Assembly: GCA_040222015.1 (NCBI GenBank)
Contig: JAVJWO010000192.1
Coordinates: forward strand, 1-64,000
Length of the DNA: 64,000 nt
Source: Coleofasciculus chthonoplastes F2-STO-03
GTDB taxonomy: Bacteria; Cyanobacteriota; Cyanobacteriia; Cyanobacteriales; Coleofasciculaceae
Reading direction: 5' to 3'
How positions within the stretch are numbered: position 1 is the stretch's first letter; each line of letters starts with the position of its first letter. This document shows, piece by piece, positions 1 to 6,000 of the stretch. The position numbers are program-made.

Positions 1-3000
1 ATTACTTTCATAATTGGTTAAAGTATTTTTCAAAGTCTTTCCATCAATAGCAATCCAATCCGTCCCCTCTTTTTTCCAATAATGTTGCTCGACAAAATCT
101 TCAAATATGGCTTTTATCTCTAGGGTTTCAATGCCGATCATTACTCTTCTTATTGTACTATAAGATGGTAATTTTTCTGGACATATTCCTAGCCATTTTA
201 TTAGGTTTTCTTTTTGGTCATGGCTAAATCTTGCAATCTGCTTATAATTGACATTTCCCGTCATCAGACCCAAAAAAATAATAGATAAAACTACCCATAA
301 TTCGTGCCGTTTGCCTCGCTTGTTGCGAAAATCCTTGACTTTTTTGAATTCTTCAATTATCCTAGCAAGCATGATTTTTTTGAAATTGAAAAAAGTGAGC
401 TTTTCTTAATTTTACCGGAAAAAGTTCACTTTTATTTTAAAGATTACCCCGGACTTTGAAAACCCCCTGCTTCAAAAGGGGGAAGCAAAAGGATGCTTTG
501 CCTTTTTTTTCATGGGGTAAACCATTAGTCGGTTTTAACCGACTTAAGCTATTAGCCAAGAACTTGAGTTTTTGGCTAGTTACTACCAATAATTAAATTA
601 CAAAAATGGCAGCTAGCCTCGTGATTGGCGACGGCGTAAAGCCATACCCGCAAAGGTCAAACCAATGCCAGCAATCCCAGCCAGACCCGAAGGTTCAGGA
701 ACTGACTTAAGGTCTCCTTTGAGTGCGACACCATCATTGCCACACTCTAAGAATAAATGACTGACGAAACTACCTCCATTTCTGGGAAGCAAAGCTCGGT
801 CAAATCTAAAGCCATAAGTGTGAGAGTCATTCGCTTCAAAGTGACTAAAATCGAGTCCAGCATTACTGAGTTGAGTCCCATCTAGTAGATCAATATCGCC
901 CAAAAATCTACCGGATTGAATCACGTTGAGGATTGGAGTATTATTCTTCGTTGGCTTCTGGGCAATGGTGCTGCCATAGAGATAATCGTAGACATCGGCT
1001 TTGTTTGGCAAGTCAGTGCCTTGGGTATTGATTTTGTCAAACTTACTGTGGTTATAGTACTGCTTTAAGCTGCCATACCCATCGTTATCTTGAGTTACGC
1101 TCATTGCCGTGACATTTTGATAAACCCCAGTACGGCTGACTTGAGAATCATTAGTTTCAGCAAAGCGAATTCCAAATAGATCACCATCATTCATCGCTGT
1201 GGTAAAATCTTTTCCAGAAAAATTAAAGAACAAATCACCAAATCCCACATTGTTGTCAACCGCTCCTGTGTCTTTATTTCCTTCTAAGGGTGTGCCACCT
1301 GTTAGAGCCACAAAAATACTATCGGCTGTTTCTTTCATGGCTAATCCTTTGATGTCATACTTAGCACCACCAGAGCCATCACTGAACGAATCAATCCCAT
1401 AGTTCCAGCCGTTATGTAATTGTCCAGCGTTGGCTTGCTGACCCAGCATAGAAATTAAGCTAACTGCAACAACAGCACTGCCGATAAATTTAGAAACTTT
1501 GTTGGTATTCATTGCGTCAACTCTCATAAATTACAACTCTTGTACTTATAATTAAAGCAATTTAAGATAAAGCTGTTGTTAAGTCCGCACAGTTTATTGT
1601 GTTGTTTATTTAAAAATGTAAAAATTCATAAATATAAAAAATTAGAAATTTATCAGGATTATTTTTGTAAAAATTTAGATAATAAAGCAGAGTTAATTAA
1701 GGTTAAAATAAACTCTGAATACCAGTTAAAACTAGCGAATGCCTTTGGGAAAAGACGGCACGAGAGGGGGAGGGTTTTGTTCCTTGGAAGCACGGGAAGC
1801 GGGCATGATGTCTGCACTACACCAAATTGAAAGAAATGGGATGCTCATGCACGAGAGTATCCATTACTGTAGCTGACGGGGTTCACGAACGCCGATGCCT
1901 CGTGAAGACTACCGGAATCAGTCCCCCCATCGCTCAAAGAGCTAGAGAGCGTGTTATCTTGACTGAAAGCCAAACGTTTTTTGGAGGCTGGTGACCGCCA
2001 GCGATTTTCACGGCAAACGTGTATGACTTTGAACAAAACGGTAACGGATCAGTCTGCCAAGGGAGGGACTTCAATACCTGTGGACAAACCGAATCAGTCA
2101 ACAGTAGCAGAACAATCGACCCCATCTATATCGCCGAGATCCAAGTTCTGGCAACAAGTCCGAGAAAATCTACAAATTATTGCGATCGCACTCGCCCTAG
2201 CGCTGTTGATTCGAGTCTTTATTGCCGAACCGCGCTACATTCCCTCAAACTCGATGATACCGACATTGACTATCGGCGATCGCGTAGTTGTGGAAAAAAT
2301 CTCTTACCACTTCAAACCCCCAGTCAGTGGGGACATCATTGTCTTTAATCCACCACCTCAACTGCAAATGCAGGGATTTACCGAAGACCAAGCTTTTATT
2401 AAACGAATCATTGCTACACCGGGTCAAATCGTCCAAATTCAAGATGGCAAAGTCTATATTAATGGGGAACCGCTAGACGAAGTTTACATTGCCGAACCCC
2501 CAAACTATCAGATGGCACCCGTGCGCGTTCCGGAAGGTCAGTTATTTGTCATGGGAGATAATCGCAACAACAGCAACGACTCTCACGTTTGGGGATTCTT
2601 GCCTCAACCTAATATTATTGGTCACGCTTGTTTCCGCTTCTGGCCCCCCAGCCGATTCGGTTTAGTTTGATGTCTGTAACTCCAGTTGGGAATGAGTTAG
2701 AAAATAGATGACAATCGAAATCTACGTCAGTACAGATATTGAATCTGATGGTCCCATTCCTGGACCTCACTCAATGTTGAGCATTGCCTCGGCTGCTTTC
2801 AAAGCAGACAAACAATTAATTGCAACCTTTACAGCCAACCTGGAAACCTTGCCAGGAGCAACAGGTCATCCCAAAACCATGAAATGGTGGTCACAACAAC
2901 CCACCGCCTGGGAAGCCAGCCGAGTTAACCCACAGCCCCCCGAACACGTAATGCGGGACTATCACACTTGGCTAGAAGCATTACCAGGTCAACCGATCTT

Positions 3001-6000
3001 TGTTGGCTATCCGGCTGCCTTCGACTTTATGTTTGTCTACTGGTATTTGATTAAGTTTGTCGGCGATAGTCCTTTTAACCATTCGGCACTCGACATCCGA
3101 TCCTATGCGATGGCATTCCTCAAACAAGATTATCGTGAGTCAGGGAAGAAAAATATACCCCCTGAGTGGTTGGAGGAAATGCCCCTGACCCACGTTGCTC
3201 TTGATGATGCAATACAACAGGGTAAGTTATTTTGCAATCTTGTGCAACACAACTTACAACAATAGACGGTAGTTTACATTAAGAGTGGAGACCCTCAACG
3301 TAAGCTTTAATTGTCGGTAGTGCCATCATCTTTTCGTAGAAGAAATTATTGACAATCTGCATCACCTCTGATCGTGCTGCCTCGACTTGGGGACCCAGTG
3401 GAACCCCTTCTTGCTGACGACTAATGCAGCGGGATAAACGCAGGAGATGGCGGGTAATTTCTAATTCCTCTTCCCCTTCCAAAACCTTAATCACGGACAG
3501 AATCAGTTCATCCGTCTGATCGAGAATATGATCAATATCAAACACCGCACCTTGGTCGATGGCGTCTTTCACCGTTCGCACTAAGGCGTGAACTTGATAC
3601 AGTAATGCGGCGGGTTCATCAAACAGTTCCCGTAGGAAGGCAGCTTCCTCATATTTTCCATTCAGCCGGAAGATGTTGTACAGCCGTTTAGCCGCTTTGC
3701 CATAGTTGGGATTATCCGGCTTAAAATATTTTTTAACTTCCTTTTCCAACTGCGTCACATAATCATCCATGACATCAGTTGAAACCTGCTTCACCAGTTT
3801 GGAAAAGATGGGGGCAGATTCAGCATCGAGGTAAATTTCTTGGAAATAGCCGTCTAGATAGCCGTCTAAGGGAGTGATTGTACCATCGGGAGCTTCCCAG
3901 GTGACATCCAACATATTGCTGGCGTTAGACAATTGACGACGCACCGGATCGGCAATCACCCAGTCTAGCTTACACCAACCCGGATCATCGGCGACCGAAT
4001 CCCAAGTGATGGTCATCGGATTTCCTTGCAAGTCGCTGACTTCAATTTGCTCAGCGACAACCGCATCCGGGGACCAGGAGATAGGTGAGCCTTTGTGATA
4101 GGAGTGTTCATCACGGATCACATCTTGGGGATAGCTACCAAATTTCAGTTCAACTAATTGAAAATTATCACCTGAGCGGCTGTTGATGGTTTTCTCACGC
4201 ATAATTCGGGAGAGAATCTGGCAGGCTTCCGCCCGGGTTGGGGCAATAATATTCACCCGCTCAAAGTAGTCACAGTCCCCTGGGTGAGTTTGAACCTTAG
4301 ATTGAGCCGCTGAACCTGAGAGCGCCAACGCTGTTTCGACAACACCAGGAACATCGTCAAATTCTACAATTCTGCCGATGGTGCGAAAACGCTCTAGATC
4401 TTTGGGGTCAAAATCTAACATACTGACCTTATGACCAAAAACCCCCGTATCTTGATCAACGGTAATATCGCTGTCTCCTGTGGCTTCGGTGATGGAGTTC
4501 ATCCATCGTTCCAATTCTTGTTCCTTGAGTTCAACCCCTAATCGACGGGCAGATTCAATCACGCGGTTACGCGCATCTGCCGTTTGATCTGGTCTTGTTG
4601 TCATGTCGGATCTCCTAAAGATAAATAATTGAGCAAGGATTTGATGGGTCAAGAAACCTCAAACTCTTTGTTGCCTTCTGCTTTTTGCTGTAGTCTAAGC
4701 TGTTCGGCATTTAAACCTTAATGTCAATAATGACGAAATTATTGTAGTGCGAGCATCTTCCTCGCTACTAATACCCAATTTAAATGCATGACAGCTTATC
4801 AACCCAAAAATAGGATTATATCATTTTGTCATAGTTTAACCCCAATGGCTCACACGTTTGATAATTTTATTCCTCAAAACCCTTTTCTAGATGGGTTTCG
4901 AGCATTTTTAGACTACCCCAGAATTTTGACAGAGTGTTGCCAGCCTTTTTCTACGGTCAATCCAGGTTGTATAAACCTTTGGGCAATTGGGGTGAGAGAT
5001 CCGGGGTTATTGCCAAGTTAGGAAAAACAACAAATATTAATCCCTAAAAACGCTCCTAGGAAAACCTATTTTTATTACTTCTTAACATGAAAAAAATCTT
5101 TTTTATTGCCCTACTTCCTCCTCAAACCATTCAAGGCTCGATTATGGAGATCAAGCAACATTGTGCTGATGTTTATGAGAGTAAAGCTGCCCTCAAATCT
5201 CCACCCCATATTACACTGCAATCCCCTTTTAAATGGGAAGTCGATGATGTACCTATTCTCGAAGAATCCCTGAAAAGTTTTGCTCAAACCCGAATACCTG
5301 TTCCGATCACCCTTCAAGGGTTTGGGGCATTTAAACCTCGCGTTATTTACGTCAATGTTCTGAAAACTCCAGAACTGATCGCGATTCACAAGGATTTAGT
5401 GGCATATCTAGAAAACTCTTTAGGTATCGTTGATGAGCGTTCTAAAAATCGTCCCTTTTCTCCTCATGTCACTGTGGCATTTCGGGATTTGAAACGGCAG
5501 AATTTTCGCAAGGCGTGGATTGAATTTGAGAACCAACCGTTAGAATTTGAGTTTTTGGCATCTCATCTTACTTTGTTACTTCACGATGGTCGGCGATGGA
5601 ATGTGAATGTAGAGTTTCCTTTTTTAACCTGATCATATTATATCTTTAGTAAGGATAAAAAAAGTAGAGACATTGCCAGCAACGTCCCTACTGACGTGGC
5701 ACACCTAAACAAGATGGATTAGCATTGTAGGGGCGCACCGACGTGCATTGGTGTCAACTTAAGCTCAAATGCCTGGGGGGGTAGGAGCTACCATACTTGC
5801 AGAGATCCGACCAATTGCTTCCTCAATATCTACAGACTCAACATGATTATGTACCAAGGCATTGTAGGCATCGGCTGGACGCATCGCTGGTTCGGGAAGC
5901 GTCAGATACATATCATGAATAGCTTGTAAGATGGACTTATGGCAGTTGCGATCAACCAAAGGGATTATCGTTTATCAGCTTACATCGCATTGATATCTAT

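Follow-up and report, generated by a model that had tools for sequence, protein, structure and literature searches.

The window analyzed here, a 64,000-nt stretch of DNA from the mat-forming cyanobacterium Coleofasciculus chthonoplastes F2-STO-03, carries two convergent genes that point to an undescribed make-and-remove nucleotide pathway. The first gene (positions 2708 to 3265, plus strand) encodes a DEDDh exonuclease of 185 amino acids, and the second (3279 to 4604, minus strand) encodes a Pol-beta-type nucleotidyltransferase (NTase) of 441 amino acids with a V21/L544/Mg662-like fold. With a probability of about 45%, the two form an accessory two-gene module in which the NTase would synthesize a short oligonucleotide, or add a nucleoside monophosphate (NMP) to a small nucleotide acceptor, and the exonuclease would clear the product. 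Both genes are real and intact, and purifying selection acts on both, with dN/dS values of 0.09 to 0.14 for the NTase (against seven cyanobacterial homologues) and 0.08 to 0.17 for the exonuclease.

The two stop codons are 13 nt apart (3266 to 3278), in agreement with the convergent layout described in an earlier survey of this genome; no terminator-like hairpin was detected in this gap, and a promoter and terminator scan performed no better than chance. Outside the module, a signal peptidase I gene (1981 to 2670, plus strand) forms the left flank, and a 2H phosphoesterase gene (5087 to 5632, plus strand), divergent from the NTase gene, forms the right flank. The 2H phosphoesterase was ruled out as a third member because it remains, as does the signal peptidase gene, at an empty site without both genes; it is clustered next to the NTase only in the present window and at two other loci (L002 and L031). 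A hairpin-forming dispersed repeat of about 105 bp (4696 to 4800) upstream of the NTase is an unrelated passenger, with 202 BLAST matches in the same genome, of which 106 reach 90 bp or more. In two of four RNA runs, a single contig covers the genes and intergenic DNA alike, and these contigs are therefore no proof of transcription. A complex prediction for the two proteins scored 0.00, which counts neither way.

The NTase has no significant match in Pfam, NCBIfam, PADLOC, or PHROG, as the survey had reported, and 32 diverse family members likewise lack a family-database match. The 6089 homologues among 8000 scored sequences, previously counted at E ≤ 1e-5, were obtained again at the threshold of E ≤ 1e-3 used here. 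By its GS and DxD motifs and its modeled core fold, the protein fits the Pol-beta nucleotidyltransferase superfamily, with nucleotidyl transfer as its predicted activity. The structure model (pLDDT 90.5) comprises N-terminal helices (about residues 5 to 80), a catalytic beta-core (about 89 to 245), and a C-terminal helical bundle (about 316 to 440); core strands span residues 89 to 96 and 110 to 120, and DxD lies on the strand after the GS motif. Residues G97, S98, A100, Q101, Q105, P108, D110, and D112 are more than 90% conserved across 210 aligned rows (G97 in 207/209, S98 in 208/209, D110 and D112 in 209/210). The motif given earlier as an invariant GS..S..Q..PGDCD in fact reads GS...S..Q..PGDCD here, and G109 and C111 fall below 90% of the 210 rows, whereas G97, S98, P108, D110, and D112 hold. 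D233 (209/210 rows) and D214 (189/210 rows) are candidates for a third carboxylate, and a conserved basic helix (K303/K306/R307/R313) may also have a role.

The proposal that Mg662 is the closest solved fold was confirmed: 4xul (Mg662) is the top match of the model, with a Z score of 21.8, an rmsd of 3.4, and 306 aligned residues, and the next row scores 9.2. Whole-chain comparisons with the Mg662/L544 structures (4xul, 4ams, and 4amq) gave, in descending order, Z scores of 21.9, 21.8, and 19.4 over 291 to 306 residues (model range 65 to 441), and the core alone matches 4xul at Z 12.8. The best match in BFVD is Zamilon V6BPH6 (442 amino acids, TM 0.62, E 1.6e-13), and the top 17 rows are all giant-virus, virophage, or unnamed viral proteins. 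The NTase thus resembles Mg662/L544 in whole-chain fold and the virophage-type V21/OLV5 proteins (Sputnik V21, Zamilon ORF7, Orpheovirus V21-like) in fold, and both groups in length. Unlike Mg662, L544, and V21, it belongs to bacterial chromosomes and has an exonuclease as its partner, and it shares only 10 to 15% identity with them without a sequence-profile link. Neither phmmer nor a profile search found a PDB match to Mg662 at E ≤ 10, no viral contig was confirmed to carry a sequence homologue, and none was found on 72,556 plasmids. On the structural model, the NTase is best placed as a sister group of V21/L544/Mg662 and not as a sequence-level member. The function of L544/Mg662 and V21/OLV5 proteins is given as unknown in two papers (PMC3671162, PMC5786535), the former of which, from 2013, lists V21/OLV5 with "no other homologs." Atlas similarities to MesX (0.91) and to viral NTP_transf_2 clusters (0.88 to 0.89) are leads only. 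A first, weak search for longer fused forms of the NTase gave none; three beta-propeller fusions, P0174 among them, came from a second search. One distant relative lies inside a protein of at least 2096 amino acids, adjoining a CdiA-CT RNase A toxin domain; others have hydrophobic N termini resembling signal peptides, one of these also carrying AbfB, FBA, lectin, and PLAT domains.

The exonuclease lies within 600 bp of the NTase in 67 of 80 GTDB loci, being upstream and co-oriented in 44, convergent in 22, and downstream and co-oriented in 1, and 13 loci are without it. The genetic tie reported by the survey from 59 of 80 loci stands, and co-loss and partner swaps strengthen it; the earlier convergent count of 22 was reproduced, whereas co-oriented upstream loci number 44 instead of 36 and loci without the exonuclease 13 instead of 17. 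The link is looser in distant family members, as the exonuclease is found within 600 bp in just 24 of 80 metagenome loci, and 24 distant loci lack it despite at least 1.2 kb of sequence on both sides. Within the sample of the cyanobacterial phylum, a stand-alone NTase occurs in three genomes, and exactly these three have an exonuclease at E < 1e-70. In Anaerolineales, where related genomes are not independent, 35 genomes have both genes, 12 only the NTase, 10 only the exonuclease, and 94 neither; the exonuclease was absent at E ≤ 1e-3 from all five NTase-only genomes retested, which may be incomplete. The exonuclease is accordingly a common but not obligatory partner, with 12 of 47 Anaerolineales carriers lacking it. 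In sister genome G1034, one deletion removed the 3' parts of both genes, and sister genome G1035 has an empty site with both genes absent. Five cyanobacterial loci hold two intact NTase copies and one exonuclease.

The partners are drawn from two exonuclease subfamilies, types A and B, separated by a long branch in a quick tree. NTases with type B partners do not form one clade (AU P = 4e-115), with at least four changes among 32 rows: the partner was exchanged between the subfamilies at least four times. A diffusible substrate would account for such free exchange better than an interface shaped by co-evolution. The recurrent pairing also bears on the alternative that the NTase modifies a protein or a small molecule by nucleotidylylation, by the logic of DrrA, GlnE, or aminoglycoside transferases, with an indirect link to the exonuclease. 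DrrA (Z 6.2, 188 aligned residues) and AAD(9) (Z 5.7, 179 aligned residues) do span both lobes of the core model, but DEDDh nucleases are not known to remove protein or drug adducts, so the repeated recruitment of DEDDh partners would be left unexplained, and we regard this explanation as very improbable.

NTase carriers, with the seed genome counted, make up 4/301 genomes in the cyanobacterial phylum, 15/301 in Chloroflexota, and 3/301 in Actinomycetota. In Anaerolineales, 47/151 genomes are carriers. The family, described by the survey as widespread, does range over these phyla, but its prevalence is patchy; a housekeeping role is unsupported for cyanobacteria and only partly supported for Anaerolineales. 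Cultured hosts among the loci include Nostoc, Calothrix, and Bellilinea. Anaerolineae loci often adjoin translation genes, with glyQS in 21 of 80 loci, and show long-term synteny with housekeeping genes, whereas translation genes are not conserved neighbors in cyanobacteria; DUF3786 and glyQS were rejected as module members, being restricted to Anaerolineae-type loci. A calcineurin-like phosphoesterase lies directly upstream in 10 distant loci, all within one NTase clade; in L028, one lies upstream of the exonuclease. The patchy distribution and joint loss are also what a conditional toxin and its detoxifier might show, the NTase draining NTPs or modifying RNA and the exonuclease reversing or clearing the product, and the distant relatives with a toxin domain or signal-peptide-like N termini agree with this. 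However, the 12 of 47 Anaerolineales carriers with an intact NTase and no exonuclease depart from the obligate co-occurrence of toxin and antitoxin in type II/IV modules, and the two intact NTases per exonuclease in five cyanobacterial loci, the Anaerolineae synteny, and the lack of plasmid matches likewise make a toxin module unlikely.

The exonuclease of the window, which is of type B, retains all of the catalytic DEDDh residues (D10, E12, D106, H162, and D167). By sequence, 7t2s is the closest solved structure to type B exonucleases (E 2.6e-17 for the window's protein), and the survey's match to a CBASS exonuclease model at E 3e-30 was recovered with PADLOC PDLC00753 (E 2.9e-30). Its description as Cap18-like holds for these features but needs qualification, since type B exonucleases form a clade separate from the Exo clade (SH-aLRT 99 in a quick tree), score 103 to 113 bits on the CBASS Exo model, compared with 226 for type A and 275 to 309 for three plasmid exonucleases, and have an altered pocket; four Cap18-group exonucleases from plasmids show only about 32% identity to the window's protein. 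In a preprint (bioRxiv 10.1101/2025.03.04.641389), Exo cleaves 2'-5' dinucleotides and 2-5A, does not bind its own synthase stably, and owes its 2'-5' selectivity to pocket residues P15, D49/E51, V55, N97, and F120. When this Vibrio cholerae Exo numbering is transferred by motif position, P16 and F123 of the window's protein correspond to P15 and F120, whereas P102 sits where type A and plasmid exonucleases carry Asn; this Asn-to-Pro change occurs in 44/44 type B rows. The segment 44 to 65 also differs from Exo, with HPxTMxWW at 54 to 61 in the window's protein, and the type A partner retains the pocket Asn and Phe. Judged by sequence, the window's exonuclease belongs to a sister subfamily of Cap18, outside the Cap18 subfamily proper, and given the identity of about 32% and the altered pocket, 2'-5' specificity is not to be assumed for it.

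In the main rival, the NTase would extend damaged or immature RNA 3' ends, possibly via the 2'-OH, with trimming left to the exonuclease, much as CCA or poly(A) addition is paired with RNase T. The shared features are the catalytic core and the pairing of addition with removal: against TUTases, PAP, TdT, and CD-NTases, the NTase core gives Z scores of 5 to 6.6, and its best matches after Mg662 include TUT1 (6.6), TUT7 (6.2), GLD-2 (6.1), poly(A) polymerase (6.1), and CutA (6.0), slightly above CD-NTases and OAS2 (5.0 to 5.2). These scores are low, however, and level with those of Tam41 (6.4) and of DrrA, a protein AMPylase (6.2), and the C-terminal lobe is a Mg662-type helical bundle, unlike that of tailing enzymes. 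Pfam assigns the exonuclease to the Rv2179c-like 3'-5' exoribonucleases, but the type B profile matched no Rv2179c structure at E ≤ 0.1. Cap18 is reported in a review to degrade ssDNA and ssRNA (PMC10419184), whereas Serratia marcescens Exo is described in the preprint as inactive on DNA or RNA substrates (bioRxiv 10.1101/2025.03.04.641389). Eight viral contigs carry type B exonucleases without the NTase, with a cyclic-phosphate-processing receiver domain, an R2K ATP-grasp protein, and a WYL_2 protein as neighbors in one case each, which would suit an RNA role, as would the translation genes near Anaerolineae loci; the latter are not conserved in cyanobacteria. RNA tailing and trimming is less probable than oligonucleotide synthesis with clean-up, but the most probable of the rivals.

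As in CBASS, the module sets a Pol-beta NTase next to a Cap18-group DEDDh nuclease, and the co-oriented and convergent layouts also occur at CBASS loci L191 and L190. In contrast to CBASS, its NTase matches no CD-NTase profile (0 PADLOC families at E ≤ 1) and reaches fold Z scores of only 5 to 6, whereas positive controls scored 798 and 358 bits on cyclase models, the latter being a true cyclase elsewhere in the same genome. E1/E2/JAB and HORMA/TRIP13 genes are also lacking; CBASS effector or ancillary genes were not found among the recurring neighbors of 160 loci, nor was an effector among 74 neighbors scanned with PADLOC, where matches were mostly to generic domains. One HEC-06-like protein occurs at L003 among these 74. 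The survey's placement of the module outside CBASS is upheld by the missing profile match and effector. Service of the exonuclease to the genome's own CBASS (contig C216) is unlikely, as it is lost together with the NTase. A CBASS-like anti-phage signaling system that stands alone and has its effector encoded elsewhere would accord with a partner family otherwise known from CBASS, with the viral structural kin of the NTase, and with large viral contigs carrying type B exonucleases, as a countermeasure might be. We consider it improbable in view of the profile and effector results and the strong purifying selection.

In the preferred reading, an oligonucleotide synthase with a clean-up enzyme, D110, D112, and a third carboxylate of the NTase would hold two metal ions, and nucleoside triphosphates would be joined without a template, giving a short oligonucleotide that can diffuse and plausibly has 2'-5' linkages; alternatively, a small nucleotide would serve as the acceptor of an NMP. 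The exonuclease would hydrolyze the product or a leaked intermediate to NMPs and so keep its level low. No receptor gene recurs among the neighbors, and with no receptor or effector encoded nearby, the target of the product would lie in trans. Catalysis, product, linkage type, and exonuclease action are what we infer from the observed motifs, fold, linkage, co-loss, and partner exchange; none of the family's viral or bacterial members has a known activity. 2'-5' oligoadenylate synthetases and 2'-5' phosphodiesterases offer the same make-and-break logic, but OAS2 matches the NTase only at Z 5.0, and no RNase L-like receptor adjoins the module. We counted for this reading the fold and motifs, linkage in three arrangements, co-occurrence across genomes, co-loss, exchange, the Exo-like type A, and the upstream calcineurin-like phosphoesterase, and against it the type B pocket, Cap18 activity on ssDNA and ssRNA, core Z scores favoring tailing enzymes, the distant and NTase-only cases without exonuclease, the lack of a recurring receptor, and the confinement of the phosphoesterase loci to one clade. 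The fold and the tie are upheld, with co-loss and swaps as added strength, but the make-and-degrade module proposed by the survey is best put conditionally, RNA tailing and trimming being a live rival.

The PDB has listed Mg662/L544 structures since 2013, no function was found in the literature searched, and the virophage protein V21 is an orphan too. The function of these viral orphans becomes testable through a bacterial branch that is genetically coupled to a putative eraser, as the partner names a likely chemistry, cultured hosts are available, and natural empty sites indicate that both genes can be lost. The pair also places Cap18-type nucleases alongside a non-CBASS synthase and reveals an uncharacterized Cap18 sister subfamily common to soil bacteria, cyanobacteria, and large viral contigs. 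A bolder interpretation, which we hold only tentatively, is that the family is the cellular branch of the V21/L544 orphans and represents its own class of oligonucleotide synthase, distinct from both CD-NTase and OAS, producing a 2'-5'-linked nucleotide messenger or RNA mark in bacteria, with Cap18-type nucleases as its native, subfamily-swapped eraser and the same domain reused in secreted or toxin-borne effectors. If so, the function of the viral proteins would follow once that of the bacterial pair is solved.

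The nucleotidyltransferase gene (NTase, 441 aa; 3279-4604, minus strand) and the DEDDh exonuclease gene (185 aa; 2708-3265, plus strand) are convergent in the window, with a gap of 13 nt, and are flanked by a signal peptidase I gene and a 2H phosphoesterase gene. The host genome (7.7 Mb, 99.99% complete) carries one copy of each. Against seven cyanobacterial homologues, with dS matched, dN/dS was 0.09 to 0.14 for the NTase and 0.08 to 0.17 for the exonuclease; purifying selection acts on both genes. A hairpin-forming dispersed repeat of about 105 bp lies at 4696-4800 (202 hits in the genome, 106 of them near-full-length copies) and a rarer one at about 5690-5770. 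At 9483-11340, 5 to 7 kb from the module, are a DUF29 protein and, both judged by eye, a RelE-like toxin-antitoxin-like pair and a small UPF0175-like gene.

The NTase has no significant match in Pfam, NCBIfam, PADLOC, PHROGs, or PDB sequences. Homologues at E<=1e-3 numbered 6089 among 8000 scored proteins, giving 537 representatives at 50% clustering. Across 210 aligned rows, which contain many close kin, G97, S98, D110, D112, D233, D247, D251, Y282, K303, R307, Y309, and R313 are invariant or nearly so; the GS..S..Q..PGDCD motif reported as invariant by the survey is off by one in its spacing, and G109 and C111 vary. A structure model built from 73 sequences (pLDDT 90.5) matched Mg662-GTP (4xul) best among 48,161 representative chains (Z 21.8, rmsd 3.4, 306 aligned residues, 11% identity), with the runner-up at only Z 9.2, in agreement with the survey's finding of an Mg662-like fold; Z was 21.9 against 4ams and 19.4 against 4amq. 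In the literature searched, Mg662 appears only within a table of GTP-binding structures (PMC11594714, in excerpt). The best predicted viral structure was Zamilon V6BPH6 (442 aa; TM 0.62, E 1.6e-13); below it ranked proteins of giant viruses and virophages, of which one bears the name V21-like and another L544-like. V6BPH6 is equated by its length with Zamilon ORF7 (442 aa), described as a homologue of Sputnik V21 in the available part of PMC3991649. The excerpt of PMC3671162 lists V21/OLV5 with function unknown and no other homologues, and they were later tied through HHpred to a putative mimivirus transferase (PMC5786535, in part). The NTase is a sister of V21/L544 by structure only. Folded alone, its core (64-345) again matched 4xul best (Z 12.8), followed by a tied pack of TUT1 (6.6), Tam41 (6.4), DrrA (6.2), TUT7 (6.2), and poly(A) polymerase (6.1), with CD-NTases at 5.0 to 5.2 and OAS2 at 5.0. 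The modeled fold thus settles the superfamily and the viral kinship, though not the reaction. These core scores slightly favor RNA tailing by the NTase and trimming by the exonuclease, a doubtful reading overall; NMPylation of a protein or small molecule is very improbable.

Among the best 80 of 594 confirmed GTDB loci, the NTase occurs in Cyanobacteriota, Chloroflexota, Actinomycetota, Planctomycetota, Acidobacteriota, Bacteroidota, and other phyla (58 to 96% identity), the closest homologues being those of Coleofasciculus (96%). The claim that it is widespread holds for the range of phyla, but not for prevalence, which is low: 4/301 genomes of its own phylum, 15/301 of Chloroflexota, 3/301 of Actinomycetota, and 47/151 of Anaerolineales, seed genome included. 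Among eight other genomes of the genus, it is whole in five, a fragment in one, and absent in two; it was found in 0/16 genomes from other genera of the family and in none of the viral contigs and plasmids searched. Cyanobacterial neighborhoods vary and consist mostly of housekeeping genes. In several Nostocales, genes that by eye look phytochelatin-synthase-like and ergothioneine/ovothiol-like immediately precede the NTase (loci L007:5290-7724, L039:7222-7884, L072:1129-5336, and L172:9553-13249).

The exonuclease lies within 600 bp of the NTase in 67 of the best 80 GTDB loci (44 upstream co-oriented, 22 convergent, and 1 downstream co-oriented), more than the 59 of 80 counted before. No exonuclease was found at the other 13, 11 of which have 1.2 kb or more of flank to either side. 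Among 80 metagenome loci from more distant members, it is within 600 bp in 24 and further off in 2, and 54 have none, 24 of these with long flanks. Related exonucleases occur in 11/301 own-phylum genomes, and the three best (E<1e-70) belong to the three genomes whose NTase is stand-alone, in one of which the two genes are 1.7 kb apart with a TnpB/Cas12f-like ORF between them. Of the Anaerolineales genomes, 35 carry both genes, 12 just the NTase, 10 just the exonuclease, and 94 neither, counts for which Fisher's p overstates the association because kin are not independent; a search of five NTase-only genomes at E<=1e-3, run without a positive control and with genome completeness not given, recovered the exonuclease in 0/5. 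Two sister genomes reveal joint loss of both genes: in G1034, window position 2886 is fused to 4455, so that 60 and 50 codons remain, and in G1035, the two flanks are 127 bp apart. Two Moorena loci (L003:10065-10292 and L004:6188-6469) lack the exonuclease and have, after the intact NTase, a partial second copy of it.

A quick IQ-TREE tree of 116 exonucleases is parted by a long branch (SH-aLRT 99) into two subfamilies. Type A, hosted by Anaerolineae and two planctomycetes, clusters with four plasmid exonucleases (L189 to L192), of which L190 and L191 lie within CBASS operons by PADLOC, L192 has an L191-like layout by annotation, and L189 lacks CBASS confirmation. The three type A proteins tested reach 226 bits against the CBASS exonuclease model, versus 103 to 113 bits for type B, which includes the window's protein; mean identity to the plasmid exonucleases is 46% and 32%, respectively. 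Type B, whose nearest solved sequence is Cap18, retains the DEDDh residues, P16, and F123, shows Pro in place of the pocket Asn in 44/44 rows, and carries an HPxTMxWW segment. It also occurs without the NTase in eight viral contigs (L207 to L214, 7 to 452 kb), neighborhoods that again slightly favor tailing and trimming. These viral exonucleases, which have cREC, R2K ATP-grasp, VWA, WYL_2, and chaperonin genes beside them, represent an uncharacterized viral sister group of Cap18. A third clade of related exonucleases (L198 to L205), from nonphotosynthetic members of the window's own phylum and one Nostocales genome, never adjoins the NTase, and that of L203 adjoins an AbiEii-family nucleotidyltransferase. 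In the NTase trees, planctomycete NTases partnered by type A nest within cyanobacterial ones, and L143 and L146, among Anaerolineae-like NTases, and L127, in a third clade, all have type B. Forcing the type B-partnered NTases together lowered the log-likelihood by 230 units (AU p 4e-115), and no fewer than four partner changes are needed, in 32 rows picked post hoc from 210 after the FastTree tree was viewed, to cover the swap cases, with partner labels from the exonuclease tree. That two nuclease subfamilies with 30% identity have been taken up as partners repeatedly, and in three orientations, speaks for one small substrate common to both.

CBASS Exo, including the E. coli upec-117 protein, is reported to cleave 2'-5' dinucleotides and 2-5A, with little activity on 3'-5' analogues and no stable binding to its own synthase, and S. 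marcescens Exo is inactive on DNA or RNA (10.1101/2025.03.04.641389, in part). By contrast, a review, in the portion available, has Cap18 degrading ssDNA and ssRNA (PMC10419184). The literature as excerpted is therefore split, and both results come from enzymes other than type B. A CBASS-like defense is improbable: although working like a synthase-eraser pair, the two proteins fail the CBASS tests, which bears out the placement outside CBASS, and no CBASS effector was found among 74 neighbors scanned with PADLOC, whose matches were mostly generic domains, with one HEC-06-like gene at L003. A separate CBASS operon without an exonuclease (CD-NTase, E2-like protein, and a patatin-like gene judged by eye) lies elsewhere in the genome (L218; G000 contig C216, 28113-30744).

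Five Nostocales loci (L008, L011, L013, L015, and L072) have two intact tandem NTases (77 to 83% identity) upstream of one convergent exonuclease. A calcineurin-like phosphoesterase lies directly upstream of the NTase in 10 distant loci, all of one NTase clade, and upstream of the exonuclease at L028; its replacing the exonuclease is not established, because one of the 10 also has the exonuclease, 4.2 kb away. A divergent NTase group (P0242, P0214, P0257, P0174, P0273, and P0274) retains GS and DxD and shows signal-peptide-like N-termini (hydrophobic in P0242, P0214, and P0257, versus 0/120 close homologues), glycan-binding domains (AbfB, FBA, lectin, and PLAT; fused to the NTase in P0242), or, in some members, fused beta-propellers. 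At L171:4392-10790 (G052 contig C203), an open frame of 2096 aa or more has a CdiA-CT RNase A domain, then a distant NTase copy and a further unassigned domain, and looks like a multidomain polymorphic toxin. That the pair itself is a toxin with its detoxifier is unlikely, if less so than CBASS-like defense.

The NTase-exonuclease pair is real and undescribed within the literature searched, which covered few subscription papers and gave no description of the pair or of a bacterial branch of V21/L544. The best reading, tentatively put at about 0.45, counts in its support that the sole characterized partner subfamily is a 2'-5' phosphodiesterase. We infer all of its catalytic steps: the NTase would make a short diffusible oligonucleotide without a template, or move an NMP onto a small nucleotide acceptor, and the exonuclease would remove the product.
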